Assembly: GCA_051117555.1 (NCBI GenBank)
Contig: JBNPEG010000200.1
Location: 1-28,249 of the forward strand
Source of the DNA: Elainellaceae cyanobacterium
GTDB taxonomy: Bacteria; Cyanobacteriota; Cyanobacteriia; CAZCXK01
Reading direction: 5' to 3'
DNA length: 28,249 nucleotides
Below, in pieces: positions 8,627-26,649 of this stretch. The position numbers and the translations under genes were made by a program. The notes under the pieces are model-generated. The model saw only the letters and a program-made list of their open reading frames with translations. It did not search any database and had not been told where the DNA came from. Numbering within the stretch: position 1 is the first letter of the stretch; each line of letters starts with the position of its first letter.

Positions 8627-10063
8627 TTAGGCGTGATTGCGGGGCGGAATCTCTCGTCCGTCGTAAAATCGGCGTTCTAATCGTCCTAACCCAACCCATA
8701 GCCCTGCGGCGATCGCCAAACTTGCTGTGAGTAGACCTGTAATCGTTCCATCCATCAGGCTGATTAAAAGCGGAGATACGATTCCTGCACCGATCCCCAG
8801 AAATGCGGCTCCGCGACGGAGGCGCTGAATGTTATTAAGGGCACCCCGACAGCTTGAACACTGCGCCACATGGGAATGATAGCGATCAAGCAGTTGCGCG
8901 GTTGAGAAAGCAGGCGGCAATGACGCATCGGGAAACGGGTCTGCGTGATAGGTATTCACCCAGGTGCAGAGTTCTGCTACAAACGCGTCAGCAGCGGTGG
9001 GCAGATAAAACGCTTTTGTGAATTGATCACGCCCACCGGATTGCTCAAGGGCGCGTTCTTGCAGATGCAAAAAGATCTGATCGTCTTCTAGGATGGCGTT
9101 TTGGCTGATGTGAGAATACCAGCGGGGCGTACGTTTGATAAAAAATTCGGGAAGCTTTGACGAAAATTTGAACGGAAACCGAGCAAACAGGCGACATTTT
9201 CCTTTACTAATCGGAGTGGCATAAACCACCGTCATCGTTCGGCCAAACTGCTTTGAGGTGAGGTCGTGCCACATGAGAGCAGGCGCGACAAATATCGTGG
9301 TTTGCGACCCTAGCGTGCCCCGTCGCGGCCCCTCTTCCCACCGGCCTCGGAAACCCTGCCGCCCGGACTCAACGACTTCTAAATCAACTGGACTCGCATT
9401 CGCGCGATCGCCCACAGTTTTGTGATGGGTGTAGGGAATATGACTAGAATCAATCACGTTTTCCAATAGGGTCAGCGCATCATAGGGCAAATCGCGCACC
9501 GTATCCAAACAGACCCATTCGTCCGGCGACTCGTCTAGGGGATCAACGATGGGAATGCGCGTTTTCTCAGCATTCGACGGCGTACCCGGATAAACAAATA
9601 GCAAGCCCTGGCAAATTGCAGTGGGCAAGGATGCGACGCAGGCTCGCGACGACGACTCCGCTGCTCCGGTGTCCCGCTGCTGGGGAATTCGCTGACAGTC
9701 TCCCGTTCCCGAAAATGCCCACCCGTGATACGGACATTCTAAAAGCCCGTCCTCTGCGACTCGCCCCTCAGACAGCGGAGCCAGCCGATGCGGGCAGGCA
9801 TCCTCAAAGACGCGCCACGACTGGCTGATTTTATCCCACCAAATCACTAGATTCTGATCGAGTAGCGTGACAGTGGTGAGTCGATTGAGATCAAGATCGC
9901 GCACATAGGCGATCGGATGCCAGACTTCGTACCAGTCGAAGCGATCGGGGTCGGTGCCGCCTGCCGGATGTTCGTCGGCAGAAACGTTGAAACTGGGCGA
10001 TCGCCCAGTTTGATCCAGCGTCAGATCATCGTCAAGAGTGGGGGATGCGGGGTTGTCGAGCAT
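8627..10063 (-). CDS. Rieske [2Fe-2S] oxygenase, pheophorbide a oxygenase (PaO/Lls1) family
   Basis: CPHRLAPLSEG, CPYHGW, ENVIDSSHIPYTH mononuclear Fe site, C-terminal HVAQCSSC and hydrophobic tail. Confidence 0.9.
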   Translation of the reverse strand: MLDNPASPTLDDDLTLDQTGRSPSFNVSADEHPAGGTDPDRFDWYEVWHPIAYVRDLDLNRLTTVTLLDQNLVIWWDKISQSWRVFEDACPHRLAPLSEGRVAEDGLLECPYHGWAFSGTGDCQRIPQQRDTGAAESSSRACVASLPTAICQGLLFVYPGTPSNAEKTRIPIVDPLDESPDEWVCLDTVRDLPYDALTLLENVIDSSHIPYTHHKTVGDRANASPVDLEVVESGRQGFRGRWEEGPRRGTLGSQTTIFVAPALMWHDLTSKQFGRTMTVVYATPISKGKCRLFARFPFKFSSKLPEFFIKRTPRWYSHISQNAILEDDQIFLHLQERALEQSGGRDQFTKAFYLPTAADAFVAELCTWVNTYHADPFPDASLPPAFSTAQLLDRYHSHVAQCSSCRGALNNIQRLRRGAAFLGIGAGIVSPLLISLMDGTITGLLTASLAIAAGLWVGLGRLERRFYDGREIPPRNHA

Positions 10064-10145
10064 GAAAGCCTTTAGGTAAGAAGAATTTGGGTCGTCATAC
10101 CTTATAAATTAATAAATCGACACATTTGTTACAAGTTTCTGCTCA

Positions 10146-11321
10146 TCAAGGCAACAGCTCTCCGCGTTGGAGCATGTCCACAACATCGGTGGTTGAAAAC
10201 GATCGCCGTTTTAGAATCGATAGAGCTTTAATATCTGACCGCAGTTGTTCGTACTGGTCGCGGGTCAGCGGAGTCTGAAGATAGTGCTCAAACAAGTATT
10301 GAAAGTTGCCTGCCCCGCTAAATTTTCCGAACCAGATTTCAGGATGACTATGAGGAAAGATGGAATAACTCTGGCGATCGCGCAGGAGTGAATGGACATG
10401 GATTCCGGTTTCGTGTCGTTGAGACTGCTGAGAATAGGGCGGGTGCGATCGCACTCCTCGCTGATTGAGAAAGTCTGTGACGTGAGCCACTGCATCATAA
10501 TTAATGCCTTCGACCTCCCAGCCAAAGCGCATCCGCAAGCCATTCAGCACCTGCTCTAATGCGACATTTCCCGCTCGCTCGCCGATGCCGCCAAAGGTTC
10601 CTGAGATTCCAGTCGCGCCTGCCTGCACAGCTTGAATCGTGTTTTCTAGAGCCAGTCCCATATCGTTGTGAAAATGAACGGCCAGCGGCGCATTGTGAGT
10701 ACATTCCAAGAGATCGCGAATCCAAATAAAGCTTTTCTCAGGCGTGAGCACTCCCACCGTGTCGCACAGCAAAACCTGGTCGACATAGGGCTGAAATTTG
10801 ATGATGCAGTCGACCAAAAAATCAAAATCAGCCCGGCTGGCATCCTCCGCCGCAAAGCAGATATTTAGCCCCTGCGCCTTGGCATATTGCAGGTGGTCTA
10901 ACACGTTATCCATCATGGTTTGACGCATGCGGTCAATGAGAGACTCAGGAACATTATCATCGACCGTTTTGCCATGATTCGAACTCGCAGCTATCTTTGC
11001 ATCTCGAAGAAACAGCAGGCGATCAGAAACGGCATTGAAGAGAATAATTTGCCCGACCCCACACGCTTTTGACTGGTCAATACAGGCGCGAGTGAGCATG
11101 GTAGACGCAATTACCTGATGCGTTAACCCGGCTGCCACTAAGTGGGTGACCAGTCGTGCTTCTGCGGGGTGTACGGCAGGCATGAGCGCAATTTGGTGAA
11201 CCCCTGTCCTGGCAATTAATTGAGCTAGTTGGTGTTTAGTGTCTCCATCGAAGAACACTCCGACCTGCTGTTCTCCATCTCGCAGAGTTTCATCCGAAAT
11301 AATGAGTTTGATTGTCTCCAT
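10146..11321 (-). CDS. DRE-TIM Claisen-condensing enzyme (2-isopropylmalate/homocitrate synthase-like, no regulatory domain)
   Basis: DETLRDGEQ, CDTVG, HFHNDMGLA, GERAGN, HETGIH; 391 aa. Confidence 0.88.
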   Translation of the reverse strand: METIKLIISDETLRDGEQQVGVFFDGDTKHQLAQLIARTGVHQIALMPAVHPAEARLVTHLVAAGLTHQVIASTMLTRACIDQSKACGVGQIILFNAVSDRLLFLRDAKIAASSNHGKTVDDNVPESLIDRMRQTMMDNVLDHLQYAKAQGLNICFAAEDASRADFDFLVDCIIKFQPYVDQVLLCDTVGVLTPEKSFIWIRDLLECTHNAPLAVHFHNDMGLALENTIQAVQAGATGISGTFGGIGERAGNVALEQVLNGLRMRFGWEVEGINYDAVAHVTDFLNQRGVRSHPPYSQQSQRHETGIHVHSLLRDRQSYSIFPHSHPEIWFGKFSGAGNFQYLFEHYLQTPLTRDQYEQLRSDIKALSILKRRSFSTTDVVDMLQRGELLP

Positions 11322-11701
11322 GATGCTAAGACAAAACCGCCCAAAATCTTAATCCTGGTCTACTGAAGAATGCTGAAACGCACCCAGGAGTCGGCGATCG
11401 CCAACCATGGGCACTGTCATGCTAAACCGTCGTTTCATAGGGTATCGTAAGTCTTGACACCGGTTTTACTCTGGTCAGAAAAAGCTACATAAAATCTACA
11501 TATCGGGTATCGATTGGCGATCGCAACCGCTTTACAGCCGATCAGCGAAACCGCTATCGTACAGCTTCAGAGGAAAGATGATTTGAATCATAGTCGAAAA
11601 CCAAAATCGACAAGGCTAGAATAATGCCGCATGAGTAAATTCGATTCGGATATGCGTCAATCAGGATGGAATTGCTAACGGAGGCGACGGCAACTCGCCC
11701 A

Positions 11702-11729
11702 AGTAAATAGCACGAGTAAATAGCACGAG
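11702..11729. repeat. 13-bp direct repeat upstream of the PKS
   Basis: AGTAAATAGCACG x2 plus AG. Confidence 0.6.
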
Positions 11730-11774
11730 ACGTCTGATATCACCCCAAGTGAATGGTGTTTGAAAGGAGTGAGA

Positions 11775-14700
11775 ATGGGTGATCCCATATTTGAGAATCA
11801 GCCCACCCAACGGGATATCGCACATCAGGAGACAACATCCGCACATCAGCAACCGCATCAGGAGAATCGAGAAACAGCGCTAAAAACCGGGCAGTCAGTC
11901 AGAGTCCATCGGCAGGCGATCGCCCACGGAGAGCCATTTCCTGACCATTTGGATGCGCCAACCACCCTGCCTGAGGTTCTCTATCGGGCTGCTCAGCGTT
12001 CAACAGGGATTCTCTATGTGCATGCGGATGGCACCGAAACCTGTCAGCCCTATTCCGAATTGCTCGACCGCGCAGAACGAATTCTGATGGGCTTGAGAAA
12101 TCGGGGGATTGCGCCTCAGACGCCGGTAATTGTGCAATGTTCTCGCAGTCTAGACGGGGTGAGTGCATTGTGGGGCTGCATCTTGGGGGGATTTGTCCCC
12201 GTGCCGATTGCCCCTGCTCCAGATTTCACCCTCGCCCCCCATAACGCGAATGTGCTGCTGAATGCGCTTCAGCTTCTAGAAAACCCGGTGATATTGACGG
12301 ATGAAACGTTACAGCCTGCGATCGCCACGGTTTTGAGTCGGGCAGCAGATTCGTCAGCCGTGTCGTCCGTGTCGGTGATGACGATTGAGGCATTGAGCCG
12401 AGAGAGTAGTCATGACGGGGGCGATCGCACGCCCCACCCCCGCCAGCCAGACGACCTGGCGCTGCTGCTGCTCACCTCAGGCAGTACGGGCGTGCCGAAG
12501 GGGGTGATGCTCAGCGAGCGGAATGTGCTGTCGAGTGCCTATGGCATGTCGAGCGTGAACGGCTTGACAGAAGCAAGCATCACTCTCAACTGGATGCCGT
12601 TGGAGCATGTCGCCAGCCTGGTGATGTTTCATGTCACAGAAGTGTATTTGGGCTGTCAGCAAATTCACGTCGCTAACGACCTCGTGCTGCAAAATCCGCT
12701 CAGGTGGCTAGATTTGATCGAACAGTATCGAGTCACGGCAACCTGGGCACCCAATTTTGCCTATGGTTTAGTAACTGATCAGGCGGAAACGATTCGTCAG
12801 CGACAGTGGGATCTATCCTCGATTCGGTGGATGGGGAACGGTGCAGAAGCGGTGGTGGGTAAAACAACCCGGCAGTTTCTCGACCTGCTGATTCCTCATG
12901 GGCTAGCAGATGGGACGGTCAGTCCGGGCTATGGCATGTCGGAAACCTGTTCCGGAATTGTCCATTCTCACCAGTTTTCGCTGCAATCCACGACGGACGA
13001 CGATGCGTTTGTCGAAGTAGGCACGCCGATTCCAGGGGTGTCAGTGCGAATTGCAGATGGATCGAATCAGGTGGTTGACGAGGGGGCGATCGGTCGCCTC
13101 CAAGTCAGCGGATTGACGGTAATGACGGGCTACTACAACCGCCCCGATCTGAATGCAGAGGTTTTTACGGCGGATGGCTGGTTTGACACGGGCGACCTGG
13201 GCATGATCCGCGATGGGCGGCTGACGATTACCGGACGGCAGAAAGATGTGATTGTCATCAACGGGGTCAACTATTACAGCCACGAGATTGAGTCTGTGGT
13301 TGAAGAATTAGACGGGGTGGAGGTGTCGTTTACGGCAGCCTGCGGCGTTCGGCAGGCAAATGGTTCGAGCGATCGCCTCGCTATTTTCTTTCATCCCTCC
13401 CAGGCCGAGAATAGTGGAGGAGAATTTGGAGAGGAGGCTGGAGAAAAAAATCTTGCCTCTGTGCTGCGGCTCATCCGTACGCGAGTGATGAGCACCCTCG
13501 GCATCAACCCCGACTATTTAATTCCGGTGGCTCGGCAGGTAATTCCCAAAACGGCGATCGGCAAGATTCAGCGGCAGCAGCTTAGCCAACGATTTGAGCA
13601 GGGAGAATTCGACGAGACGGTGCACCGAGTTCGGGACGTGCTCATGCAGCAAACTCGCCATGCCGCGCCTGGTAGCCATCTAGAACAGCAGATTGCCAAA
13701 ATCTGGCAAGACGTGTTGCAGGTCGAACCTGTCGGCATCCACGATAATTTCTTTGAACTGGGGGGCAATTCTCTGCGGCTGATGCAGGTGCTGCATCGGC
13801 TGCAAACCAGCTTGAATTGCCAACTATCGGTAGTGGATCTGTTCCAATATCCCACGATTGAAACGTTGGCTCGCCTGTGCAAAGCACGTATCGCCCGCCA
13901 TTTCAGCCCAGATTTGAATCCAGCACCTTTAGCATCCAGTCCCCCTCTCCGTCCGCGAACCCGACGAGCCGCTCATTCAGGCGTAGCGGTAATTGGCATG
14001 GCGTGCCGATTTCCGGGGGCAGCTAATTTGGAGGAATTCTGGAAAAACCTGTGCAATGGCGTCGAGTCGATTCAATTCTTCACTGACGACGAACTACGGG
14101 CATCGGGCGTCGATCCGCAAGTACTCAGCCATCCCGACTATGTGAAAGCCAGCCCAATTTTGGACGACATCGAGAGCTTTGATGCAGGCTTCTTCGGCTA
14201 TAGCCCTAAAGAAGCAGAGCTAATCGACCCGCAGCAGCGTCTGTTGCTAGAGTGCGCCTGGGAAAGTCTAGAACATGCTGGATATGACCCGCTTACCTAT
14301 CCAGGAGCCATCGGCTTGTATGCGGGGGCATCGATGAATACCTATTTGCTCAACCAGGTGCTGCCCAATCGCCATCGGCTTGACCCCAATGATTCCTTAG
14401 ACGTGTTGACGCTGAGTTCGATGGGTGGCTTCCAGATGACCGTTGCCAACGACAAAGACTACCTCGCCACCCGCGTTTCTTACAAGCTCAACCTGCGCGG
14501 ACCCAGCGTTAACGTGCAGACGGCATGTTCGACTTCCCTTGTCGCGATTCACATGGCGGCTCAGAGCGTGTTGAATGGCGAATGCGACATGGCGTTGGCT
14601 GGGGGCGTGTCGGTGCATACGCCGCAGACGGTGGGGCATCTGTTTCAAGACGGCATGATTCTTTCTCCTGATGGGCACTGTCGAGCTTTTGATGCCAATG

Positions 14701-17700
14701 CCCAGGGCACTATCTTTGGCAGCGGCGTCGGGCTAGTGGTGCTAAAACCGTTGGATGGGGCGATCGCCGATGGAGACCAGATTTACGCCGTGATCAAAGG
14801 CTCAGCGATGGGCAATGATGGTGGCATGAAGGTGGGCTATTTAGCACCCAGAGCTGAGGGACAAACCGCCGTTGCAGCCGAGGCGATCGCCCAAGCTGGC
14901 ATTGATGCTGACACGATTGCCTACATCGAAGCGCACGGCACGGGCACCGAACTGGGTGACCCTATTGAGATTGCTGGACTGACTCACGCCTTTCGCATGA
15001 GCACGTTAAAGAACCAGTTTTGCGCGATTGGCTCGGTCAAAACCAATGTTGGACATCTAAACATCGCATCCGGGGTGGTGGGCTTTATTAAAACCGTCTT
15101 AGCACTGCACCATCAAAAACTGCCGCCGAGTCTGCACTTTGACGCCCCCAATCCGCAAATTGATTTTGCTAACAGCCCGTTTTTTGTAAACACCACCCTC
15201 ACGGATTGGCAACCCACCGGATATCCGCGACGAGCAGGGGTAAATTCGCTCGGCATCGGCGGGACAAATGTGCATGTGGTGTTGGAGGAGGGGAACAGGC
15301 AGTCAGCCGTCAGCGGTCAGCCGTCAGTAAACGACAGACAGGATGGTTCCCCAGTGCGATCGTCTCGGTCGCGTTCTAATCCAGCGGTAATTGATTCACA
15401 TCAGACGAGGGGACGCGGGCACGATGCCCGCACTGATGTGGATTCTGCGGAACTGCGATCGCCCTTCAATTCCCAGCCGTTAATTACCCAGGAATTCACC
15501 CGTTCTCATCATCTGCTGGCCCTCTCTGCTAAGAGTGAACGGGCGCTGCGAGATTTGGCAACGCGCTATGAGGCATTTCTCCACGCCAATCCAGACATGT
15601 CGTTAGCGAATCTGTGTTTTACCGCCACCATGGGGCGATCGCACTTTGAGGCTCGACTAGCGATCGCGGCTGATTCAGTTACTCAGATGCAGGCACAGCT
15701 TCGAACCTATCTGGATGGGGCTGATGCGATTGGGGTTTCCTCTGCTTCTGCTTCTACTTCTAAATCCACCTCCCAATCTACCTATTTATCCCGTCGTCAA
15801 ATCGCCTTTCTTTTCACCGGGCAAGGCTCCCAATATCTCGGCATGGGGAAGGAGCTTTATGAAACCCAGCCCATCTTTCGCCAAACCCTGGACGATTGTG
15901 ACACCATCCTACGTCCTCTGCTGGGTCAGTCTCTACACGACATTCTCTTCCCCCCTCCCTCCCTCCCTCACCTCCCCACTCCCCCCCTCCTTCACCAAAC
16001 CCAATACACCCAACCCGCAATCTTCGCCGTCGAATATGCCCTCCACCAAGTCTGGACATCGTGGGGCATCGAGCCGTCAATCGTCATGGGGCACAGCATT
16101 GGCGAATATGTGGCAGCCTGTGTTGCGGGGGTATTTAGCCTAGAAGATGGACTGAAGCTGGTGGCAGCGCGGGGTCGGCTGATGCAAGCATTGCCACCAG
16201 GAGGGATGGTAGCCGTGATGGCGGACGAAAACGTAGTGAATGGGGCGATCGCCTCCTATCCTGACCTGTCGATTGCAGCGATCAATGCGCCTCAAAACAT
16301 CGTTATTTCAGGTGCGTCAGATTCTCTGGAAGCCGTCTGTGAAACACTGGCGTCTCAGGATATAAAAGTGATTCCGCTCATCGTCTCCCATGCGTTCCAT
16401 TCCTCGATGATGGAACCGATGCTTGCGGAGTTTAAACAGGTTACACGGGCGATCGCCTTTGATATACCTCGGCTCGATTTGATCTCTAATCTTACGGGAG
16501 AATTGGCGACATCTGATATTGCTACTCCCGACTATTGGTGTGCCCATATCCGGCAGCCTGTGCGGTTTTCGGCGGGTATGGAAACGCTCCGCCAGCTTGG
16601 ATATGAGACGTTTCTCGAATGCGGCGCAAAACCCATTTTGCTCGGCATGGCTCGGCAGTGGGCAGACCAGAGTGAACGAAGTATTTCCCAGCCTCACGCA
16701 GTAACCGGATTAGCGAGTTTGCAGCCCAAACAAGCCGACTGGCAGTCGATGCTTTCTAGCTTGGGCAGATTATACGCGCAAGGCTGGTCGGTCAACTGGC
16801 ATGCAGTGCATCATGGGGAATCGTGTTGCCGAATTCCGGTGCCGACCTATCCCTTTCAGCGGCAGCGCTACTGGCTGGATGTACCGCGCCGATTGGATAG
16901 AAGATTTGACAGTGGATTGAATGGTGGATTGAATGGTGGATTGAATGGTGGATTGAATGGTGGATTGAATGGTGGATTGGATAGCGGTTTGGATAGAAGG
17001 ATTGATGTCTGTGGAGGGCTTGGTAATACCAAGCCCCTACAGATGCCGGATGCTCGACATTCATTATTGGGAAACCGTTTTTCGTCTGCACTCAAAGATG
17101 TTGTATTTGAATCCCATCTCTCCTCGGATGCGCCCGCGTTCCTTACTGATCATCGGGTGTTTCAACGCGCCGTTTTGCCAGGAACTGCCTATTTAGAAAT
17201 GGCGCTATCAGCGGGACACCAGGTGCTGAAAACCAAATCCATTCGCCTCAAGGATGTGGTGATTCAAGCGCCGCTGATTTTGCCTGAGGATGGGGTGAAA
17301 TCCGTTCAAACCATTCTCAGTAACGACTCAATCGGCAACGATTCAGTAGAGGCATCATTTCAGATTTATAGTCTGCTTTGTAATGAGTGTGCTCCTGACG
17401 ACGAAACATGGCAACTGCACTGCTCGGGGGCGATCGCCAAAGCTGAACCTGTTGATTCAAAACCCATTGTTCCAAAACCAATTAATCTAGAGCAGTTGAA
17501 GCAGTATTTCAACGAAAGGCGATCGCCCACTGACCATTATCATACGTGCCAGGCCCGTGGCATTGACTATGGAGCAAGCTTTCAAGGCGTTCATGCACTC
17601 TGGAAAAACGACGGTGAAGCCTTGGGTGAAATTTGTGTTGCACCTACTGACCCATCAACCTATTCCATCCATCCGGCTCTGCTCGATGCGTGCTTTCAAG

Positions 17701-20700: not shown

Positions 20701-21050
20701 CTCACCAGGGATTTTCCGATTTGGGGATGGATTCTTTGACATCTATCGAATTGCGAAATCGACTGCAATCTAGCCTAGATAAGCCATTGCCGTCTACGCT
20801 GATGTATGACTATCCCACCCTGGCTGCATTGACTGCCTATGTTGAAACTCTACTTTTCCCTTCCATTTCTGCATCAACGTCTGCATCAACGCCTGCATCA
20901 ACGCCTGCATCCACAGAATCAACGGATAACTCACTCAATGCCCATGAATCAACGCCTATCTCATCAAATGATATATCCCATACTTTAGAACTCTTATCCG
21001 ACGAAGATGCGGAAGCTCTACTACTAGACGAACTCAAACGACTGACTTGA
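11775..21050 (+). CDS. Type I PKS: adenylation/acyl-ligase - carrier protein - KS - AT(malonyl) - DH - ER - KR - ACP - C-terminal docking helix
   Basis: ATG at 11775 after AAGGAG. A: TSGSTGVPKG, WMPLEH, GYGMSET, TGDLG. CP1: GGNSL. KS: VQTACSTS, HGTGT, NVGH. AT: GHSIG, HAFH. DH: HRVFQRAVLP, LLDACFQ. ER: HAAAGGVG. KR: TGGLGALG, VDD, YSAAN. ACP: GMDSL. Confidence 0.95.
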   Translation: MGDPIFENQPTQRDIAHQETTSAHQQPHQENRETALKTGQSVRVHRQAIAHGEPFPDHLDAPTTLPEVLYRAAQRSTGILYVHADGTETCQPYSELLDRAERILMGLRNRGIAPQTPVIVQCSRSLDGVSALWGCILGGFVPVPIAPAPDFTLAPHNANVLLNALQLLENPVILTDETLQPAIATVLSRAADSSAVSSVSVMTIEALSRESSHDGGDRTPHPRQPDDLALLLLTSGSTGVPKGVMLSERNVLSSAYGMSSVNGLTEASITLNWMPLEHVASLVMFHVTEVYLGCQQIHVANDLVLQNPLRWLDLIEQYRVTATWAPNFAYGLVTDQAETIRQRQWDLSSIRWMGNGAEAVVGKTTRQFLDLLIPHGLADGTVSPGYGMSETCSGIVHSHQFSLQSTTDDDAFVEVGTPIPGVSVRIADGSNQVVDEGAIGRLQVSGLTVMTGYYNRPDLNAEVFTADGWFDTGDLGMIRDGRLTITGRQKDVIVINGVNYYSHEIESVVEELDGVEVSFTAACGVRQANGSSDRLAIFFHPSQAENSGGEFGEEAGEKNLASVLRLIRTRVMSTLGINPDYLIPVARQVIPKTAIGKIQRQQLSQRFEQGEFDETVHRVRDVLMQQTRHAAPGSHLEQQIAKIWQDVLQVEPVGIHDNFFELGGNSLRLMQVLHRLQTSLNCQLSVVDLFQYPTIETLARLCKARIARHFSPDLNPAPLASSPPLRPRTRRAAHSGVAVIGMACRFPGAANLEEFWKNLCNGVESIQFFTDDELRASGVDPQVLSHPDYVKASPILDDIESFDAGFFGYSPKEAELIDPQQRLLLECAWESLEHAGYDPLTYPGAIGLYAGASMNTYLLNQVLPNRHRLDPNDSLDVLTLSSMGGFQMTVANDKDYLATRVSYKLNLRGPSVNVQTACSTSLVAIHMAAQSVLNGECDMALAGGVSVHTPQTVGHLFQDGMILSPDGHCRAFDANAQGTIFGSGVGLVVLKPLDGAIADGDQIYAVIKGSAMGNDGGMKVGYLAPRAEGQTAVAAEAIAQAGIDADTIAYIEAHGTGTELGDPIEIAGLTHAFRMSTLKNQFCAIGSVKTNVGHLNIASGVVGFIKTVLALHHQKLPPSLHFDAPNPQIDFANSPFFVNTTLTDWQPTGYPRRAGVNSLGIGGTNVHVVLEEGNRQSAVSGQPSVNDRQDGSPVRSSRSRSNPAVIDSHQTRGRGHDARTDVDSAELRSPFNSQPLITQEFTRSHHLLALSAKSERALRDLATRYEAFLHANPDMSLANLCFTATMGRSHFEARLAIAADSVTQMQAQLRTYLDGADAIGVSSASASTSKSTSQSTYLSRRQIAFLFTGQGSQYLGMGKELYETQPIFRQTLDDCDTILRPLLGQSLHDILFPPPSLPHLPTPPLLHQTQYTQPAIFAVEYALHQVWTSWGIEPSIVMGHSIGEYVAACVAGVFSLEDGLKLVAARGRLMQALPPGGMVAVMADENVVNGAIASYPDLSIAAINAPQNIVISGASDSLEAVCETLASQDIKVIPLIVSHAFHSSMMEPMLAEFKQVTRAIAFDIPRLDLISNLTGELATSDIATPDYWCAHIRQPVRFSAGMETLRQLGYETFLECGAKPILLGMARQWADQSERSISQPHAVTGLASLQPKQADWQSMLSSLGRLYAQGWSVNWHAVHHGESCCRIPVPTYPFQRQRYWLDVPRRLDRRFDSGLNGGLNGGLNGGLNGGLNGGLDSGLDRRIDVCGGLGNTKPLQMPDARHSLLGNRFSSALKDVVFESHLSSDAPAFLTDHRVFQRAVLPGTAYLEMALSAGHQVLKTKSIRLKDVVIQAPLILPEDGVKSVQTILSNDSIGNDSVEASFQIYSLLCNECAPDDETWQLHCSGAIAKAEPVDSKPIVPKPINLEQLKQYFNERRSPTDHYHTCQARGIDYGASFQGVHALWKNDGEALGEICVAPTDPSTYSIHPALLDACFQVVLAALPQSMQSITYVPVSIDCFHLYHAPPERLWSHVQLRSIESAQELAQELVQPSLITADVRIFDDHGVLIAQATGLSAQRINRETVLESTSADWQNWLYEIEWRSLPAVKSAKQLDKQEPGHWLIFADSQVAPSIGEHLMAHHQICTIVTPAETFDYTEHHVQLDPTKPQHFESLLARQPASLRGMIHLWSLDAAPIGENDSPSHTFRHPQIGCQSALYLIQALIKQPHLSASSTRVYFITQGTQSVQGEPLTPKGIAQSPLWGLGRAIAREHPDLRCRLIDLALAHDSTIDASTVQPLFEELWADVRSGDGATHAENQIALRGQSRYGARLIRSNASTLLPAESLNRQLHISTRGTLDNLTWVFAPRQMPHSDEVEIRVQATGLNFRDVLNALGLYPGDAGALGLECAGEIVSVGHGVQHLNVGDRVMAIAPTRFGNYVTVSAALVAPIPDGLSIEEAATIPTAFLTADYALRRMGGIKAGDRVLIHAAAGGVGQAAVQIAQQVGAEIFATASPSKWDSLYSIGIHHVMNSRTLDFTDQILEVTQGKGVDLVLNSLSGDVIAKNLDALTYGGHFLEIGKAGIWEPEIMAIARPDVAYHVIDLVNVTQQQPDVIQLMLRRLVDQLQTGQLQPLPYQTFSGDRVIDAFRYMQQAKHVGKIIVRNALNSTDASSPPIETGGHSASIKIREHGIYAITGGLGALGLQVAQWLVDHGARHLLLIGRNSPSIEAHSTIAQLQQKGVSVSVAQADVSNLADLTEILAPYQHHGYKSSPKSTLQSPPPLLGIFHLAGLVDDATLLHQTWQHFERVMAPKVKGAWNLHALSQTLSLDYFVMFSSAASLLGSAGQANYSAANAFLDALAHFRRAQGLPGLSINWGAWSDMGLAVKQGVHDRFSQTGIKLINPQDGLDVLGALLTQPKPQVGVLPIDWLQWIQEHRQSSFLADFNTDFGRERKHGSTKPALLQRLTALPEGDRPAFLSAHLKSQVATVLGLNSTALDDPHQGFSDLGMDSLTSIELRNRLQSSLDKPLPSTLMYDYPTLAALTAYVETLLFPSISASTSASTPASTPASTESTDNSLNAHESTPISSNDISHTLELLSDEDAEALLLDELKRLT
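16912..16979 (+). repeat. In-frame 12-bp tandem repeat (GTGGATTGAATG x5 plus a partial) encoding (GLNG)5 in the AT-DH linker
   Basis: Read directly from the sequence and translation. Confidence 0.95.
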
Positions 21051-21058
21051 TTCGTAAC

Positions 21059-23032
21059 ATGCCCCAAACTCCAGACCAACCAACCAACCTTTCTCCAACT
21101 AAGCAGGCGCTCCTTGCCATTAAGCAACTCCAGGCAAAACTCGATGCAGTAGAGCAAGCACAGCACGAACCGATCGCCATTGTGGGCATGGGGTGTCGGT
21201 TTCCGGGCGAGGCAGATTCGCCAGAGGCTTTTTGGGAGGTTTTACATTATGGAAAAGATGCCATCACCGACATACCGGGCGATCGCTGGGATGTTGACCA
21301 ATACTACAGTCCAGACCCTACTATTCCAGGAAAAATGTATACCCGTCGGGGCGGGTTTGTGCCTCATCTCTACGAATTTGATGCGCCATTTTTTCGCATT
21401 GCGCCGCGAGAAGCCGCTAGCCTTGATCCGCAGCAGCGCCTCCTGCTCGAAGTAGGCTGGGAGACATTAGAACATGCCGGACTATCTCCCGATCGCCTGG
21501 TTGGGAAACAGGCTGGTGTCTTTGTGGGCATTTGCAGTATTGATTATTGGCATCGGCTGCTCAGTCAGCACAATACCCAGATTGACGCCTACCTTTCGAC
21601 CGGAAACACCCACAGCGTAGCCGCCGGTCGCCTGTCCTATGTATTGGGTGTCACAGGGCCAAGTTTGGCAGTAGATACAGCGTGTTCATCATCGCTCGTA
21701 GCCATTCATCTGGCCTGTCAAAGCCTGCGAAATCGTGAATGCAATCTGGCACTGGCAGGCGGCGTGAATCGCATCCTATCGCCCGAAGCCAGCATCAATT
21801 TTTCGAAAGCAAAGATGCTGTCTCCCACGGGGCAATGCCGTTCCTTTGATAGCGAAGCAGACGGGTTTGTACGCTCCGAAGGGTGTGGCATGGTTGCGTT
21901 GAAGCGGCTCAGTGATGCGGAAGCAGCAGGAGATACCATTTGGGCGGTGATTCTCGGCTCAGCAATGAATCATGATGGACGCACCAGTGGCTTGACGGTG
22001 CCCAACGGGCCGGCGCAGCAGGCAGTCATTCGTCAGGCATTGCACGCCAGCCGCATTCAGCCTGACCGGGTCAGCTATGTAGAAACTCACGGAACAGGTA
22101 CATCATTGGGCGACCCGATCGAGGCGGGGGCATTGGGAGAGGTCTTTGGAACGGGGCGATCGCCCTCTCAATCCCTGGTATTAGGTTCGGTGAAAACTAA
22201 CATTGGGCATCTAGAAGCCGCTGCCGGAATTGCAGGGCTGATCAAGACCGTGCTTGCGATCCATCACGACGAAATTCCTGCCAATTTGCATGTTCAAATA
22301 CCCAATCCCCATATCGACTGGCATAAACTACCGCTCAAAGTTCCGACGCATCCAGTTCCCTGGACAGGGGGAGAACGGCCTCGCGTTGCGGGAGTGAGTG
22401 CGTTTGGGTTTAGCGGCACGAATGCCCACGTGGTAGTTGGGGAGTATAGAAGTCAGCAAAGGAGCAGTCAGCAAGGTAGCAGTCAGCTTGAGAGCAGTGG
22501 GAGAGAAAGCCGTGAGAGGGACGGTCAGAGAGAAAAAGACGATCAGGAGACTGAGGATATTCATCTGTTGACGCTTTCAGCTCGAACGGAGCAGGCATTG
22601 CGAGACTTGGTGAGGCGATATATTGAGCATCTAGGACGGCATCCCGATTTGAAGTTAGGAAATGTGTGTTTTACGGCATGTACGGGGCGATCGCACTTTA
22701 ACCATCGACTCGCGGTGATTTCATCATCCATCGCAGACCTCCGAGAAAAACTGGTAGCATTCGACGCCGGACAGTTTCTAGATGGGGTTCATCACGGGCG
22801 CATTCGGGGGGCAGCAGATTTGGGGCAACTTTCCAGCCCTCAATCCGTCAGTCAATCCGTTAGTCAATCTGGCACTGCCAATCGACGACAGGTACTTGAA
22901 GAACAGGCAATGCTCTATCTCCAAGGTGCTCCGTTGGATTGGAACGTGCTTGATTCTAGGGGCGATCGCCATCACGTAGTGTTGCCGACCTATCCATTTC
23001 AGCGCCAGCGCTATGGAATCGAGTCCCGCTGA
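21059..23032 (+). CDS. Stand-alone type I ketosynthase with docking domain, lacking AT and ACP
   Basis: ATG at 21059; LSPTKQALLAIKQLQAKL docking helix, EPIAIVGMGCRFP, DTACSSS, HGTGT, NIGHLE; the KS-AT linker joins directly to the post-AT LPTYPFQRQRY, then stop. Confidence 0.9.
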   Translation: MPQTPDQPTNLSPTKQALLAIKQLQAKLDAVEQAQHEPIAIVGMGCRFPGEADSPEAFWEVLHYGKDAITDIPGDRWDVDQYYSPDPTIPGKMYTRRGGFVPHLYEFDAPFFRIAPREAASLDPQQRLLLEVGWETLEHAGLSPDRLVGKQAGVFVGICSIDYWHRLLSQHNTQIDAYLSTGNTHSVAAGRLSYVLGVTGPSLAVDTACSSSLVAIHLACQSLRNRECNLALAGGVNRILSPEASINFSKAKMLSPTGQCRSFDSEADGFVRSEGCGMVALKRLSDAEAAGDTIWAVILGSAMNHDGRTSGLTVPNGPAQQAVIRQALHASRIQPDRVSYVETHGTGTSLGDPIEAGALGEVFGTGRSPSQSLVLGSVKTNIGHLEAAAGIAGLIKTVLAIHHDEIPANLHVQIPNPHIDWHKLPLKVPTHPVPWTGGERPRVAGVSAFGFSGTNAHVVVGEYRSQQRSSQQGSSQLESSGRESRERDGQREKDDQETEDIHLLTLSARTEQALRDLVRRYIEHLGRHPDLKLGNVCFTACTGRSHFNHRLAVISSSIADLREKLVAFDAGQFLDGVHHGRIRGAADLGQLSSPQSVSQSVSQSGTANRRQVLEEQAMLYLQGAPLDWNVLDSRGDRHHVVLPTYPFQRQRYGIESR

Positions 23033-23084
23033 TATCGACCCAGTTGAGGTTGAATGAGTCCCGAATTGAGATCTAGTTGATACA

Positions 23085-23753
23085 ATGATGCGGAATGATT
23101 TAAGTCATATGAGTTTTACCCAAAATATGCATATTCCTGGTTGGAAACGCTATCGCTTCGTCATGCTGAGCAGCCTCTCTGCGATCGCCCTAATTGTTGC
23201 CACATCATTTGGTTTTCCTGCATTGGCTCAGTCGGGTAGTGCGGTGAGTCAGCTTCCATCTCAAGATCAAGCCGCATTGCAGTCAGGACGGGTAACACTC
23301 TCTGGCAGCAACGGACAATATACTGTGCGCGTGCTAGTCAGCGCTCCGGCTGCTACGGCATGGAGTGTTCTCACGGATTACAATAATTTTTCGAGGTTTT
23401 TCCCAAGCGTGGCAGAGAGCCGACTTTTGCGCTCCGACGGCAATCAGCGAGTATTTGAACAGATCAATGTCATTAGAATCTTTCCCATTAGCCGCCGAAG
23501 CCGAATTGTGATTGCGGCAACAGAAAGCTATCCTCAGCGAATTGCGTTTAATTTAGTCGAAGGAGATGTCGATTCTCTCCAAGGGACGTGGCAACTTGAA
23601 CCCATTTCAGCCACTCAGGTATTGATTACGCATCAGGTTAGTGTCCAGCCTGAATCGTCTACACCCCGAGGTATTTTCTTTAACATCTATCAAAATACGC
23701 TTCAAGATACATTGGCTGCCTTGAAGCAGGAAGCCGAACGGCGCAATCAGTAA
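23085..23753 (+). CDS. SRPBCC/START (polyketide cyclase-like) protein with predicted signal peptide
   Basis: Hydrophobic N-terminus ending in ALA-Q; AWSVLTDYNNFSRFFP and F.LVEGD...LQGTWQLEP motifs; exact start uncertain. Confidence 0.82.
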   Translation: MMRNDLSHMSFTQNMHIPGWKRYRFVMLSSLSAIALIVATSFGFPALAQSGSAVSQLPSQDQAALQSGRVTLSGSNGQYTVRVLVSAPAATAWSVLTDYNNFSRFFPSVAESRLLRSDGNQRVFEQINVIRIFPISRRSRIVIAATESYPQRIAFNLVEGDVDSLQGTWQLEPISATQVLITHQVSVQPESSTPRGIFFNIYQNTLQDTLAALKQEAERRNQ

Positions 23754-23770
23754 CAGGTATAGGCACAAAG

Positions 23771-24616
23771 ATGGGTGCAGACTCGCGACATATCATCATT
23801 ACGGGAGGATCAAGCGGTATCGGCTATGCCCTTGCCCGCCGACTTGTTCAGAATGGCGATCGCGTGTCAATTATGGCGCGGACTCCCCAAACGCTCGATA
23901 CGGCTAAAGCCCAGCTTGAGCAAGAACGTCTGCACTCGTCTCAACAGATTTTAGCGATTCCAGCCGATGTGTCTAGCCAAGAGCACGTGAATCGAGCCAT
24001 TCAGCAGGCGATCGCCCAACTGGGAATGCCTACTATGCTGATCAACTGTGCTGGAATCGCGCATCCCGGATATTTTCGAGAGGTGCCCATCGAGGTGTTT
24101 GAAACCACGATGGCGATCAACTACTTCGGCACGCTGTACTGCATTCGCGCTGTTCTACCCTATATGGAACAGCAGCGCAGTGGGCATATCATGATGACAT
24201 CATCAGGAGCAGGGTTGATTGGCATCTACGGCTATAGCCCCTACAGCCCCAGCAAGTTTGCTTTGCGGGGGTTGGCAGAGTCGCTCCGAGGCGAGCTCAA
24301 ACCGTGGGGCATCGGGGTTTCAATCGTCTATCCGCCCGATACGGATACGCCGCAACTCGCCCAGGAAAATAAGACAAAACCTCTCGAAACTCAGCGAATC
24401 ACAGCAACGGCTACTATGTGGACTGCGGATCATGTCGCCGCTGAGATTTTGAAGGGGGTAAGAAAAAAACAGTTTGCGATCTCCCCTGGTACAGAAATGT
24501 CAGTGTTATCAAGATTTCATAGCGTCATGTCCCCGGCTCTCAACTGGTACTTCGACCGCATCGTGGCGACGGTGCAAACGGATAATTCTCGCCATGCAAA
24601 TCAGGTCGTTAAGTAA
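23771..24616 (+). CDS. SDR, 3-ketodihydrosphingosine reductase (KDSR/TSC10)-like
   Basis: TGGSSGIG, NCAG, INYFG, YSPYSPSKFALRGLAESLRGEL, VYPPDTDTP (KDSR-subfamily-like motifs). Confidence 0.8.
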   Translation: MGADSRHIIITGGSSGIGYALARRLVQNGDRVSIMARTPQTLDTAKAQLEQERLHSSQQILAIPADVSSQEHVNRAIQQAIAQLGMPTMLINCAGIAHPGYFREVPIEVFETTMAINYFGTLYCIRAVLPYMEQQRSGHIMMTSSGAGLIGIYGYSPYSPSKFALRGLAESLRGELKPWGIGVSIVYPPDTDTPQLAQENKTKPLETQRITATATMWTADHVAAEILKGVRKKQFAISPGTEMSVLSRFHSVMSPALNWYFDRIVATVQTDNSRHANQVVK

Positions 24617-26306
24617 GTTCCTGAATCAGAGAAGACTTGGGCTGAGCAGGGTGCTAAGTCTGGCAGTGCCTCTGTATTATGGACTGATCACGCTGCATCA
24701 CGGGCTAAGTCATGCCTACATCGTGCAAGATGATGCTCGACAACACGTTGCTTGGCTACAGCGATTCATCGAACCGCACCTGTTTCCAGATGACTGGATT
24801 GCCAACTACTTTCAAACCGTTGCCCCGTGGGGATATCAGTCGGTTTACTGGATTGCGGCTCAGTTTGGCGTTGATCCGCTCATGCTTGCCAAGATTTTGC
24901 CCATCATCTTAGCTGCGATCGCCACGGTTTATGTATTTCAGGTGACGTATTTGATCTTGCCGGTTCCACTGAGTGGACTGATTGCGACACTCATTTTCAA
25001 TCAGCATCTCTGGCTCAATGATGATCTCGTGTCTGCAACGCCAAGAGCATTTGTCTATCCCCTGTTTGCTGCATTTTTGTATTACCTGATCCGGAATTCA
25101 CTCGTTCCGTGTTTGATGGCGATCGCCCTGCAAGGACTCTTTTTTCCACAAATGATGGTGCTTGAGGTGGCGATTCTCACCGTTCGGCTGGTGCGCTGGC
25201 CTGGCGGTTCTCCAAGACTTTCAATCAGAGCAGATTATGCCCTGTGGGGGGCAGGCATGGCGATCGCCTTGGTAATTGCACTCATGTTTGCTTTGAATCT
25301 CTCCGAATTTGGCTCCGCCATCACAGCCGATCAGATGCGAACCATGCCTGAATATAACGTAGGTGGACGCAATGAATATTTTGGCGTGACACCCTTCAAC
25401 TTCATCTTCAACGGGGCGAGCGGCATTCGTATTCCGGTGTTTCCATCAATTATCTGGGCAGGGTTTGGACTCCCGTTTCTACTCACCTCCCGATATCCGC
25501 TCGCTCGTTTGATAACGAAGCATGTCGAGGTTTTAGGGCAGGTGTTGATAGCGTCAGTAGGCATGTTTTTCCTCGCTCATCTACTGCTGCTTAGACTTCA
25601 TTTTCCGAGCCGATATACCTACCACAGTTGGCGATTTGTGTTGGCGATCGCCGCTGGGCTGGTGCTCACAATCCTGCTGGATGGCGGATATCGGTGGTGG
25701 CAGAACAAACGCCAGTCTCATCAACTGTCTCGACACGATATCTTTTGCTTGGCGTTAAGCGGGTTGATCATCCTCACGGTGACGATTGTGCCCGCTGTTC
25801 CGGTGCTTGTCTTTAAGTTCCAAGGTTGGATTGTGGGTAACTATCCGACGATCTATCACTATTTAGCCGCTCAGCCCACCGATACGCTGGTGGCATCCCT
25901 AGCACCTGAAGGTAATAATATCCCGGTGTTTGCCAAGCGGTCTACGTTAGTTGGACGGGAATTTGCCTTGCCCCACCATCCCCGCTACTACACCGTGATT
26001 CAAGAAAGGGCGATCGCTCTCGTCAATGCTCAATACAGTCGTGATCCATCAACAATTCAGCAGTTTGTTGACAAGTATGGAGTTGATTTTTTCTTAATGG
26101 ATACGACTGCCTTTACGGCTGATTATTTGTTATCTCACGATTGGCTGGTGCATAGTTCGTTTCAATCGGTGGTGTTTGATGCCGTGAATCATCTTGAACG
26201 TGGATATATCCCTGTCTTGGCACATCTTCCTCAGGCATGTGCGGCTGTATCGACGGAGCAGCTCGTTTTAGTGGATGCAACCTGTGTTTCACGCGGAGCA
26301 AGGTAA
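24594..26306 (+). CDS. Polytopic membrane protein, GT-C glycosyltransferase-like
   Basis: Likely start ATG at 24594, overlapping the SDR by 23 nt; many hydrophobic helices; acidic QDDARQH after the first helix; FPSRY motif; soluble C-terminal domain. Confidence 0.6.
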   Translation: MQIRSLSKFLNQRRLGLSRVLSLAVPLYYGLITLHHGLSHAYIVQDDARQHVAWLQRFIEPHLFPDDWIANYFQTVAPWGYQSVYWIAAQFGVDPLMLAKILPIILAAIATVYVFQVTYLILPVPLSGLIATLIFNQHLWLNDDLVSATPRAFVYPLFAAFLYYLIRNSLVPCLMAIALQGLFFPQMMVLEVAILTVRLVRWPGGSPRLSIRADYALWGAGMAIALVIALMFALNLSEFGSAITADQMRTMPEYNVGGRNEYFGVTPFNFIFNGASGIRIPVFPSIIWAGFGLPFLLTSRYPLARLITKHVEVLGQVLIASVGMFFLAHLLLLRLHFPSRYTYHSWRFVLAIAAGLVLTILLDGGYRWWQNKRQSHQLSRHDIFCLALSGLIILTVTIVPAVPVLVFKFQGWIVGNYPTIYHYLAAQPTDTLVASLAPEGNNIPVFAKRSTLVGREFALPHHPRYYTVIQERAIALVNAQYSRDPSTIQQFVDKYGVDFFLMDTTAFTADYLLSHDWLVHSSFQSVVFDAVNHLERGYIPVLAHLPQACAAVSTEQLVLVDATCVSRGAR

Positions 26307-26362
26307 GCCAAACTTAGCAATTGTTGCGTCATAGGCGATGGGTACTTCGGACATCTCAACAC

Positions 26363-26560
26363 CTGCCGTCGCCCAGATTTGAGGTCGTAGAAGCGTTCGC
26401 CAACCGGAGCATATCCGTAGCCGTAATCATCACGCTTGTCCATCCCCGACTCATCGACATAGACCAGATGAACGGCTTTAGGGTCTCCCAGAGCGGCTAA
26501 AAACGCCTCCCGTTTGGCATTATCGCGTTGGCGATCGCCGTAGGTCTTTTCTTTGCGTGT
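26363..26560 (-). pseudogene. IS630-family transposase internal fragment
   Basis: TRKEKTYG..RD...REAF...LVYVDESGMD.RDDYGYGY...GERF..LKSGRR: region around the first DDE aspartate; both ends missing. Confidence 0.8.
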
Positions 26561-26588
26561 ATTGAATCTTCCGTTGGTGAGTAGGCCC

Positions 26589-26620: not shown

Positions 26621-26649
26621 GATGTTATTAATCATGGATTTCAGGCAGC

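Follow-up and report, generated by a model that had tools for sequence, protein, structure and literature searches.

How can a polyketide synthase (PKS) cluster that encodes no release enzyme deliver a product? This question is raised by a 28,249-nt stretch of DNA from an Elainellaceae cyanobacterium (contig JBNPEG010000200.1, positions 1 to 28,249; hereafter the window, to whose whole length all coordinates refer). According to its open reading frames (ORFs) and their translations, a LeuA-like gene faces five genes on the opposite strand, which encode a large synthase, a stand-alone ketosynthase (KS) without an acyltransferase (AT) domain, a START protein, a KDSR-like short-chain dehydrogenase/reductase (SDR) and a polytopic membrane protein. 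A Pfam scan of the region that these genes occupy (10146-26306) returned no thioesterase, reductase-release, condensation or pyridoxal phosphate (PLP) domain, and a preliminary description had read the cluster as a complete pathway to an envelope (glyco)lipid. Our comparative analyses lead to a different view. Most likely, the window holds one locus of a conserved pathway of cyanobacteria that is spread over at least three, and it appears to lack a release step because the release enzyme, a PKS fused to an alpha-oxoamine synthase (AONS) domain, is encoded on another contig (C132). On balance, it is probable that a PKS-built chain would be released by the AONS domain and reduced by the SDR to a 2-amino-3-hydroxy (sphingoid-type) lipid, while our confidence in the identity of the starter, the role of the AT-less KS and export is lower than in this general mechanism.

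On C132, a PMT_2 gene and a GT4 glycosyltransferase gene are followed by the PKS-AONS gene and then by an isopropylmalate dehydrogenase-like (Iso_dh) gene. The PKS-AONS protein combines one complete extension module, consisting of KS, AT, dehydratase (DH), enoylreductase (ER), ketoreductase (KR) and acyl carrier protein (ACP), with an Aminotran_1_2 domain, in which the PLP lysine motif TLSKS is kept and whose best matches in the Protein Data Bank (PDB) are the serine palmitoyltransferases (SPTs) 3a2b and 8guh (4.5e-72). Orthologues of this AONS domain (70-74% identity, within a very long open frame) were found in nine of the ten tested genomes that bear the core of the cluster, that is, the LeuA-like gene, the loader synthase, the AT-less KS, START and SDR. 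Direct linkage is seen in genome G017, which belongs to a different family. There, the LeuA-like gene heads an operon on its own strand and is followed by a synthase of about 2.7 thousand residues (KS-AT-DH-ER-KR-ACP-Aminotran_1_2) and a PagL-like outer-membrane protein, beyond which lie GT4, LpxO-like and two PMT_2 genes; in the divergent direction, the loader synthase, KS, START, SDR and GT-C-like genes follow one another. PKS-AONS also stands directly after the LeuA-like gene in four other loci (L078, L079, L080 and L106). From these comparisons, the AONS domain on C132 is the predicted source of the release step that is absent from the window. The earlier statement that no PLP enzyme is present holds inside the window, but it does not extend to the pathway, and the cluster is not the complete pathway that it had been taken for.

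The SDR gene (23771-24616, + strand) provides a second line of evidence. Its product matches Pfam adh_short (1.6e-51), no other SDR of the genome is more than 28% identical to it, and its best PDB match is a TSC10 (yeast-type) 3-ketodihydrosphingosine reductase (8jat, 1.3e-28). In a sample of 401 genomes of the phylum, 22 were AONS-positive (a homologue at E <= 1e-120), and an SDR orthologue was present in 16 of these 22 genomes versus none of 14 AONS-negative ones. The AONS domain is fused to a PKS in the genome under study (G000), G158, G017, G014 and G202; in others it either stands alone after a FAAL-like ligase (FAAL, fatty acyl-AMP ligase) and an ACP or forms a ligase-ACP-AONS fusion. 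The SDR orthologue (56-63% identity) lies directly downstream of AONS in G364 and G162 and, judged by coordinates, in G116 and G298. These observations suggest that the SDR belongs with the AONS step.

The same observations bear on the alternative that the window is self-contained. In such a scheme, a loaded starter would be extended once, the AT-less KS would couple a second acyl chain in a Claisen reaction of the Pks13 or NocG kind, and the SDR would reduce the resulting beta-keto group before export by the START protein and glycosylation by the GT-C-like protein, with no amine in the product. This would suit the tight packing of the five genes and a KS that has an intact Cys-His-His set, no carrier of its own and Pks13 as its second-best NCBIfam model, and a KS joining two acyl-ACPs has been described for nocuolin A (PMC11837247). 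However, Pfam detects no release enzyme in the window, the SDR orthologues directly follow AONS in genomes without such a KS and show the co-occurrence given above, PKS-AONS accompanies the core in nine of ten genomes and adjoins it in five loci, and most versions of the cluster lack the GT-C-like gene. A self-contained window is thus distinctly improbable, and the earlier proposal of KS-mediated coupling followed by ketoreduction is left without support, since the SDR goes with the AONS step.

Simple cassettes of FAAL-like ligase, ACP and AONS genes were observed at four loci, L146 (G246), L147 (G364), L148 (G312) and L150 (G162). The AONS gene is followed by the orthologous SDR in L147 and L150 and by a B12-radical-SAM/DUF4070 gene in L146 and L148; in the latter two loci a GT4 gene and one or two genes of the LpxO-like type are present as well, and L147 has an acyl-CoA-dehydrogenase-like gene. 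These cassettes look like a separate, uncharacterised amino-lipid pathway. In addition, the genome under study has a distant AONS-family gene (C54:54568-60086, 27% identity to the PKS-fused domain), located approximately 4 kb from an LpxO-like gene.

To what extent is the cluster itself conserved? A scan with an alignment of three orthologues of the LeuA-like protein, covering one genome per species, returned 59 loci, of which 12 (L109-L120, for the most part LeuA-like genes of archaea, with no more than 32% identity) were dropped and 47 (L062-L108, 53-92% identity) were kept. By title, the retained loci are all cyanobacterial except for one from an "uncultured bacterium" and one from a Binatia metagenome-assembled genome (MAG). 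The loader synthase is divergent from the LeuA-like gene in 31 of the 38 loci having at least 1500 nt of upstream DNA, and the AT-less KS follows the synthase in 13 loci, namely those where the 10-kb flank extends that far. Each of ten genomes anchored by the LeuA-like gene and searched for the SDR contains one orthologue (56-64% identity), with START beside it in all ten and the KS next to START in nine. All six genes occur in the order of the window in G017, at 38-65% identity, and the KS also precedes START in G202 and G014. The core is found in about 30 cyanobacterial species, with Leptolyngbya-, Elainella- and Phormidesmis-like filamentous cyanobacteria as carriers; culturable strains named among them include Leptolyngbya sp. 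JSC-1, Elainella saxicola E1 and Leptolyngbya sp. FACHB-8. As START and SDR are conserved beside the KS and the LeuA-like/loader pairing is kept, gene order is conserved, whereas the preliminary description had allowed that its absence would point to chance assembly. That the cluster is a chance assembly or a decaying remnant without coherent function is extremely improbable: the pathway genes are spread over at least three contigs here, as a remnant might be, but all frames of the cluster are open, catalytic motifs are intact, and the order is kept at the above level of identity in another family and in dozens of species. Taken together, these sequence comparisons indicate that the cluster is genuine.

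Several features of individual loci were noted in passing. DUF1400-type and other alpha/beta hydrolase genes and PMT_2 adjoin KS-START in two loci without the LeuA-like gene, L035 (G202) and L045 (G014). In L084, L088, L089 and L099, which come from four related MAGs, genes for a bacteriorhodopsin-like protein and for a DUF2254 membrane protein are repeatedly found at a distance of a few kb from the cluster, which is probably local synteny only. The non-cyanobacterial locus L102, from the Candidatus Binatia MAG, has an orthologue of the LeuA-like gene (53% identity) with a fused aconitase-like gene after it and an LpxO-like gene before it.

We then turn to the question of what chain would be delivered to the release enzyme. 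The loader synthase (11760-21050, + strand) has 3096 residues and the organization A-PCP-KS-AT-DH-ER-KR-ACP, where A denotes an adenylation domain and PCP a peptidyl carrier protein. Pfam and motifs place, with approximate nucleotide positions, the AMP-binding and DIP2-like region at residues 97-617 (12048-13610), the first, PCP-like carrier (GGNSL) at 643-706 (13686-13877), KS1 at 741-1128 (13980-15143), AT at 1350-1660 (15807-16739), DH at 1767-2067 (17058-17960), ER at 2355-2643 (18822-19688), KR at 2672-2862 (19773-20345) and the second carrier around DLGMDS at 2987-2992. The start codon is uncertain, as orthologue matches begin near residue 53. KS1 retains the Cys, His and His residues and has a VQTACSTS-type active site, the KS type found after PCPs; the cofactor and catalytic motifs of ER (HAAAGGVG) and KR (LVDD) are intact, and the ATs of both synthases carry HAFH, which we take to be malonyl-specific. 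The first 647 residues are closest in the PDB to the A-PCP part of McyG (4r0m, 3.1e-139) and to 6ulw (1.9e-136). We assume that McyG loads phenylpropanoid acids and that 6ulw, whose PDB title does not say so, is a keto-acid-selecting A domain. A FAAL loader was rejected, with FAAL structures scoring 1.3e-47 (7r7f), 2.5e-38 (3pbk) and approximately 1e-24 (FadD32) and all NCBIfam FAAL models remaining below their cut-offs.

The gene facing the loader (10146-11321, - strand) encodes a LeuA-family protein with an HMGL-like domain (Pfam, 2.1e-42) and without the LeuA regulatory domain, which falls below all NCBIfam cut-offs for LeuA, NifV and CimA. Its next best match within the genome is only 27.5% identical, indicating a paralogue of the housekeeping genes, and its top PDB match is the homocitrate synthase 6ktq (6.6e-35). 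Alignment to 6ktq and 3eeg gives the pocket residues S73, C155, A157, L184 and S240, none of which agrees with homocitrate synthase (H, R, T, S, H) or isopropylmalate synthase (L, E, S, N, E). Two of the five are identical to those tabulated for HphA (A73, D157, A159, M186, S242; PMC12961565), and the three that differ, S, C and L versus A, D and M, are small or hydrophobic; positions 73, 157 and 186 are described as variable among HphA homologues in the same source.

Two partner enzymes complete the picture. All-versus-all clustering of ORFs revealed a third conserved family, a fused Aconitase_C and Aconitase protein of approximately 590 residues, in 24 of the 47 loci with the LeuA-like gene; in the genome under study its orthologue (72% identity) is on contig C247. 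The Iso_dh beside PKS-AONS on C132 scores 308.6 bits with the leuB model, below the cut-off of 353.2, and a second Iso_dh/LeuB-like copy, on C248, is 40% identical to it. Housekeeping roles for the LeuA-like gene and Iso_dh were rejected on account of the distant second copies in the genome and the scores below NCBIfam cut-offs. Orthologues of the LeuA-like protein at 57-59% identity were present in 14 of the 401 sampled genomes, and each of the nine contexts fetched shows, next to the orthologue, recurring weak matches to the A-PCP part of the query. Two contexts were confirmed by Pfam as nonribosomal peptide synthetases (NRPSs), L132 with condensation (C), A, PCP and thioesterase (TE) domains and L137 with A, C, PCP and methyltransferase domains, and in three (L137-L139) the LeuA-like, Iso_dh and aconitase genes form one operon near NRPS genes, the same arrangement as reported for hphA/hphB/hphCD (PMC12961565). 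The LeuA-like gene may accordingly be regarded as a putative HphA-like 2-alkyl/benzylmalate synthase in a trio with HphB-like and HphCD-like partners located elsewhere in the genome, and we read this trio as a candidate homologation set for a bulky non-polar 2-oxo acid. A McyG/6ulw-like loader, combined with a LeuA-like gene in an Hph-like trio, makes it improbable that the chain starts from an ordinary fatty acid.

The product of the trio might go to the loader or to the AONS domain. An isopropylmalate-type trio beside a cyanobacterial assembly line has been proposed, on genomic grounds, to feed a keto-acid loading module (2026 preprint, PMC13252402), and the divergent pairing of the LeuA-like gene with the loader is consistent with such feeding. 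Conversely, within the same pathway the trio, via a general transaminase, might give a homologated amino acid to AONS while the loader takes another acid. The LeuA-like gene does directly precede PKS-AONS in G017 and the four loci named above, Iso_dh and/or aconitase adjoin PKS-AONS rather than the loader in Leptolyngbya sp. JSC-1 (L064), in L076 and in the genome under study, and an amino acid is the end product of the known Hph pathway (PMC12961565). Nevertheless, the LeuA-like gene is paired with the loader in 31 of 38 loci, and AONS domains from genomes without it are still approximately 60% identical. The solved members of the loader clade, moreover, presumably take aryl or 2-oxo acids. 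We therefore consider a supply of AONS by the trio unlikely and retain the loader as the more likely recipient.

Between the two synthases, the stand-alone KS (21059-23032, + strand) is the proposed link. Pfam detects the N- and C-terminal KS domains, KAsynt_C_assoc and a CurL-like/RhiE-like KS-AT linker (hence KS-LD, for KS and linker domain), with no Acyl_transf_1 domain and no ACP in the gene. The motifs DTACSS, HGTGT and NIGH are intact, and the combination of linker and post-linker with a complete catalytic set and no AT has the features of a trans-AT-style KS-linker protein. Its best PDB match is 7zma (4.6e-233, residues 38-655), which we take to be from a trans-AT PKS, followed by CurL (4.1e-212). 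The domain is preceded by a 35-residue extension like those used for docking to an upstream protein, and the KS of the AONS synthase, here and in G017, has none and starts within five residues of EPIAIVG. The AT-less KS shares 52% identity with its equivalent in the AONS synthase on C132 and 42% with the neighbouring KS1, and its counterpart in G202 retains an AT fragment. Our best guess is that it would take the chain from the synthase of the window and catalyse, on the carrier of the AONS synthase, the condensation that primes it; a Claisen coupling of two chains, as first proposed, is a less likely role.

What is the nature of the product? The START protein (23085-23753, + strand; Polyketide_cyc, PF03364, 5e-19) has at its N-terminus a basic stretch and 20 hydrophobic residues, followed by ALA-QS. 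In 11 of 14 KS-linked START orthologues the N-terminal segment is hydrophobic (Kyte-Doolittle 19-mer of at least 1.35), and in most of them basic residues are followed by 12-20 hydrophobic ones and an AxA-Q (ASA-Q type) site. Judged by eye and by hydropathy, this makes export via a Sec-type signal peptide likely. START was dropped as an anchor for finding clusters, since only 4 of the 20 best-homologue loci (17 genomes) were PKS-linked. The neighbours that recur around AONS genes are of the envelope type: GT4 (46-52% identity; C132, G017, G014, L146 and L148), an LpxO/OlsC-like hydroxylase (Asp_Arg_Hydrox; G017, G014, L146 and L148), a PagL-like barrel (G017, G014, L076 and L080) and PMT_2 (C132, G017, G014 and G202). 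These neighbours point to a decorated envelope lipid rather than a diffusible toxin, and an envelope (glyco)lipid remains, as first suggested, the likeliest kind of product.

A diffusible specialised metabolite would require that the 2-oxo acid of the trio be loaded as such, that the SDR reduce the alpha-keto group of the starter, in the manner of KRs embedded in keto-acid-loading modules, and that START be a cyclase/dehydratase or a binder for self-protection. The second-best solved relative of the loader, 6ulw, is taken to select keto acids, relatives of the LeuA-like protein elsewhere serve NRPS products, and the Pfam name of the START family is "Polyketide cyclase/dehydrase"; the proposed precedent of a keto-acid-feeding trio (PMC13252402) would also agree. 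On the other hand, the SDR orthogroup accompanies AONS genes that come with FAAL-like ligases but without a keto-acid loader, the closest solved relative of the SDR is a 3-ketosphinganine reductase, and the START protein is predicted to be exported, away from carrier-bound intermediates. Considering also the envelope-type neighbours, we regard a diffusible metabolite as rather improbable and a sphingoid-type product as probably glycosylated and exported.

The last gene of the cluster (24594-26306, + strand, from the ATG at 24594) encodes a 570-residue polytopic membrane protein with no Pfam-A or NCBIfam match even at E = 10. Its AlphaFold2 model (mean pLDDT 88.6) gave 28 Foldseek matches in the PDB at E <= 0.001, the top 23 of which are all GT-C enzymes; STT3, PglB, AglB, DPY19, AftA, AftD, ALG9 and ArnT were matched with a probability of 1.00 and TM-scores of approximately 0.45-0.57, at 10-16% identity. 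Q45-D46-D47, placed by the predicted model in the first loop after helix 1, is invariant across 44 homologues. A GT-C fold is thus predicted. The family occurs in 61 of the 401 genomes, with six copies in the genome under study, mostly away from PKS genes and often beside PMT_2, and as a multicopy family it was dropped as a cluster anchor. Three of the five other copies here adjoin PMT_2 (ArnT-like) genes (C173:14735-19909, twice in tandem, and C111:40419-43786), which suggests arrays of periplasmic-face glycosyltransferases. Directly after the SDR, with overlapping or abutting frames, the GT-C-like gene is found in G000, G158, G017 and G014, that is, in only three families, and it is absent from this position in all ten genomes anchored by the LeuA-like gene; in other SDR-positive genomes it lies elsewhere by coordinates. 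The gene, which had been presented as a core step, is therefore treated as a lineage-specific tailoring gene.

Based on these data, the following sequence of reactions can be proposed. The HphA-like synthase, the aconitase-like isomerase (C247) and the isopropylmalate-dehydrogenase-like enzyme (C132) would lengthen a bulky non-polar 2-oxo acid by one carbon, and the McyG-like A domain would load the lengthened acid, or a derivative, onto its own PCP. The KS-AT-DH-ER-KR-ACP module, as its domains and motifs indicate, would add one malonyl unit with full reduction. The AT-less KS would then accept the chain and prime the second synthase, and the KS-AT-DH-ER-KR-ACP-AONS protein encoded on C132, whose domains are evident, would extend it, possibly iteratively as in SgaA, before its PLP domain releases the chain by decarboxylative condensation with an amino acid as a 2-amino-3-ketone. 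The 3-keto group of this intermediate would, from the comparative evidence, be reduced by the SDR of the window. Finally, GT4, LpxO-like and PMT_2 enzymes and, in this lineage, the GT-C-fold protein may decorate the lipid, and the exported START protein may carry it beyond the inner membrane.

A number of points weigh against this pathway. The AONS gene is unlinked to the core in the genome under study, and no AONS orthologue was found in one of the ten core-bearing genomes tested, G403, a 4.2-Mb assembly that may be incomplete. The margins that favour the functional assignments are modest, both for SPT over BioF/KBL (4.5e-72 versus 1.9e-68) and for TSC10 over the next SDR (1.3e-28 versus 1.8e-24). 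Six of the 22 AONS-positive genomes (G008, G041, G152, G204, G300 and G380) yielded no SDR orthologue, and the contrast of 16 with 0 is drawn from genomes that include related, hence non-independent ones and from 14 controls that were the first non-matching genomes listed rather than a random draw. The variants of the cluster are also not uniform: the loader of G202 is more distant (45% identity), without an orthologue of the LeuA-like gene at E <= 1e-90 in that genome, and G014 has KS-START, SDR and PKS-AONS with neither loader nor LeuA-like gene; the Hph-like trio is therefore not obligatory. The step assigned to the AT-less KS is the weakest of the scheme, two or three non-iterative extensions only would give a chain that is short for a lipid, and no ceramide-synthase-like N-acyltransferase was seen among the genes considered.

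The layout of the window agrees with what was first reported. Gene positions and spacings are borne out by the ORFs and translations, the five co-directional genes being separated by 8, 52 and 17 nt, with a 23-nt overlap between the SDR and membrane protein genes, and a divergent intergenic region of 438 bp (11322-11759) separating the HphA-like gene from the synthase. The five family assignments, LeuA-like, AT-less KS, KDSR-like (by the TSC10 match), exported START (as predicted for 11 of 14 orthologues) and GT-C-like (by predicted fold), were likewise upheld at the level of sequence and predicted structure. A scan of 9900-27000 gave 15 promoter and 15 terminator sites versus 14.4 and 15.7 expected in shuffled sequence, and the promoter-like matches at 11531-11560 and 11594-11622, within the divergent region, are no more frequent than in shuffled sequence; as the counts equal the shuffled expectation, operon boundaries and a promoter are not assignable. 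Three sequencing runs contain part of the stretch, all of soil-metagenome DNA, and none of those listed is RNA. The flanks look like housekeeping DNA, with HemL at 5556-6857 (603.8 bits versus a cut-off of 527.3) and a P-type ATPase starting at 26650.

Two other genes of the window deserve mention. A 762-residue protein (2546-4834, - strand), encoded on the strand of hemL and 722 nt downstream of that gene, combines a NACHT/STAND NTPase with a C-terminal GUN4 domain (Pfam), an unusual fusion of signalling ATPase and porphyrin-binding protein. The gene for a Rieske/PaO-type oxygenase (8627-10063, - strand), co-directional with the HphA-like gene and 82 nt downstream of it, may encode a tailoring enzyme or be unrelated; its position beside the HphA-like gene is kept only in the closest relatives (L031, L062 and L103), and a KshA-like Rieske gene is also present in the AONS locus L148.

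If the proposed pathway is true, a defined and widely distributed gene set, with the core in about 30 species in addition to the simpler ligase-ACP-AONS-SDR cassettes, makes cyanobacterial sphingoid lipids testable. According to a 2022 report (PMC8895605), only two sphingolipids had been reported from cyanobacteria, with no biosynthetic genes known, and a candidate from Nostoc punctiforme that was tested proved negative, no sphingolipid being made. It is a tentative possibility that the gene set described here is the missing genetic basis of cyanobacterial sphingolipid-like lipids, in which a base built by PKS from a homologated (aryl or branched) 2-oxo-acid starter would be released by a PKS-fused SPT-like domain and reduced by a eukaryote-type KDSR. 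In this view, the product would be an envelope glycolipid, taken across the periplasm by the secreted START protein and given its sugar on the outer side of the cell membrane by the unclassified GT-C enzyme. We found no paper in the open-access literature that describes such a cluster. Several of its combinations are unusual: a PKS that would be supplied by a homologation trio of the LeuA/B/CD type, a pair of cis-AT modules with an AT-less KS placed between them, a PKS operon that includes the gene of a secreted START protein, and a GT-C fold family without a sequence family. For genome mining, the window is also a caution, as it looks release-less only because its release enzyme is encoded elsewhere.

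With regard to known systems, the parts of the loader synthase have relatives in two directions. McyG A-PCP (4r0m) and 6ulw are the closest solved structures and match nearly the full length of the loader, which is followed by a PCP-like carrier and a KS of the kind seen after PCPs but has no embedded KR or methyltransferase. The cyanobacterial olefin synthase (Ols), described as FAAL-ACP-KS-AT-KR-ACP followed by sulfotransferase and TE domains (PMC11837247), likewise fuses an N-terminal acyl-activating domain and a carrier to one extension module; in contrast, Pfam detects neither a sulfotransferase nor a thioesterase in the genes of the window, DH and ER are present, and the loader is not FAAL-like. 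The LeuA-like protein and its partners resemble HphA/HphB/HphCD of Nostoc punctiforme, which make homophenylalanine and homotyrosine (PMC12961565), in having a LeuA-family synthase without the regulatory domain and with 6KTQ as the closest structure, in the presence of two more dedicated paralogues, a LeuB-like dehydrogenase and an isomerase of fused LeuD-LeuC type, and in a pocket with a small residue at 73, Ala at 159, a hydrophobic residue at 186 and Ser at 242 (HphA numbering). They differ in that the trio accompanies a PKS rather than an NRPS and in three of five pocket residues, as compared via the tabulated residues rather than an alignment to HphA. As for the membrane protein, its predicted model shares with STT3/PglB/AglB, DPY19, AftA/AftD and ArnT the fold, a soluble domain at the C-terminus and, in the first extracytoplasmic loop, two acidic residues that are invariant, but unlike these enzymes it belongs to no detectable sequence family such as PMT_2 or STT3.

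The release and reduction steps find their counterparts in sphingolipid pathways. The canonical bacterial cassette, described as Spt with an ACP and an acyl-ACP/CoA synthetase (PMC9386255), is mirrored by the ligase-ACP-AONS-SDR cassettes of other cyanobacteria, whose AONS (approximately 60% identity) and SDR (56-63%) are orthologous to those of the system described here. Unlike that cassette, two PKS modules replace the ligase, ACP and fatty-acid supply, and the reductase is KDSR-like rather than CerR-like, a contrast taken from PMC12134224. Fungal pathways to sphinganine analogues, such as fumonisin (FUM1/FUM8/FUM13) and sphingofungin, as summarized in the latter source, follow the same logic of a PKS chain, AONS release with an amino acid and a KDSR-like 3-ketoreductase; however, the fungal PKSs are iterative and make diffusible toxins, and the likeness is one of logic, not of sequence.

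The closest counterpart is SgaA/SgaB/SgaC of Pseudomonas fluorescens MYb115, in which an iterative PKS, an SPT-type alpha-oxoamine synthase and a KDSR-like SDR, for which a role in reduction has been proposed, make sphinganines (PMC12134224). That work, of 2025, is the first demonstration of PKS-derived sphingolipids in bacteria, and its main text contains no mention of cyanobacteria. In both systems, a type I PKS would replace fatty acid synthesis in supplying the acyl chain, through the KS-AT-DH-ER-KR-ACP modules of the window gene and of the C132 gene here and through SgaA there, SgaA being taken as fully reducing from its saturated sphinganine products and not from its listed domains. A PLP-dependent alpha-oxoamine synthase of the SPT type releases the 2-amino-3-ketone, its predicted counterpart here lying outside the window, on C132, and a KDSR-like SDR is part of both gene sets. 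In contrast to SgaABC, the AONS domain is fused to a PKS, and a McyG-like loader synthase, an AT-less KS, an exported START protein and an HphA/B/CD-like trio are added; the genes are scattered, the host is a cyanobacterium, and the likeness is drawn from described functions, not from sequence comparison. The best reading of our data is therefore that the system is a cyanobacterial variant of the SgaABC-type PKS-sphingolipid pathway, set apart by five features: an AONS domain fused to a PKS, a loader module of the McyG kind, the Hph-like trio, the AT-less KS and the secreted START protein.

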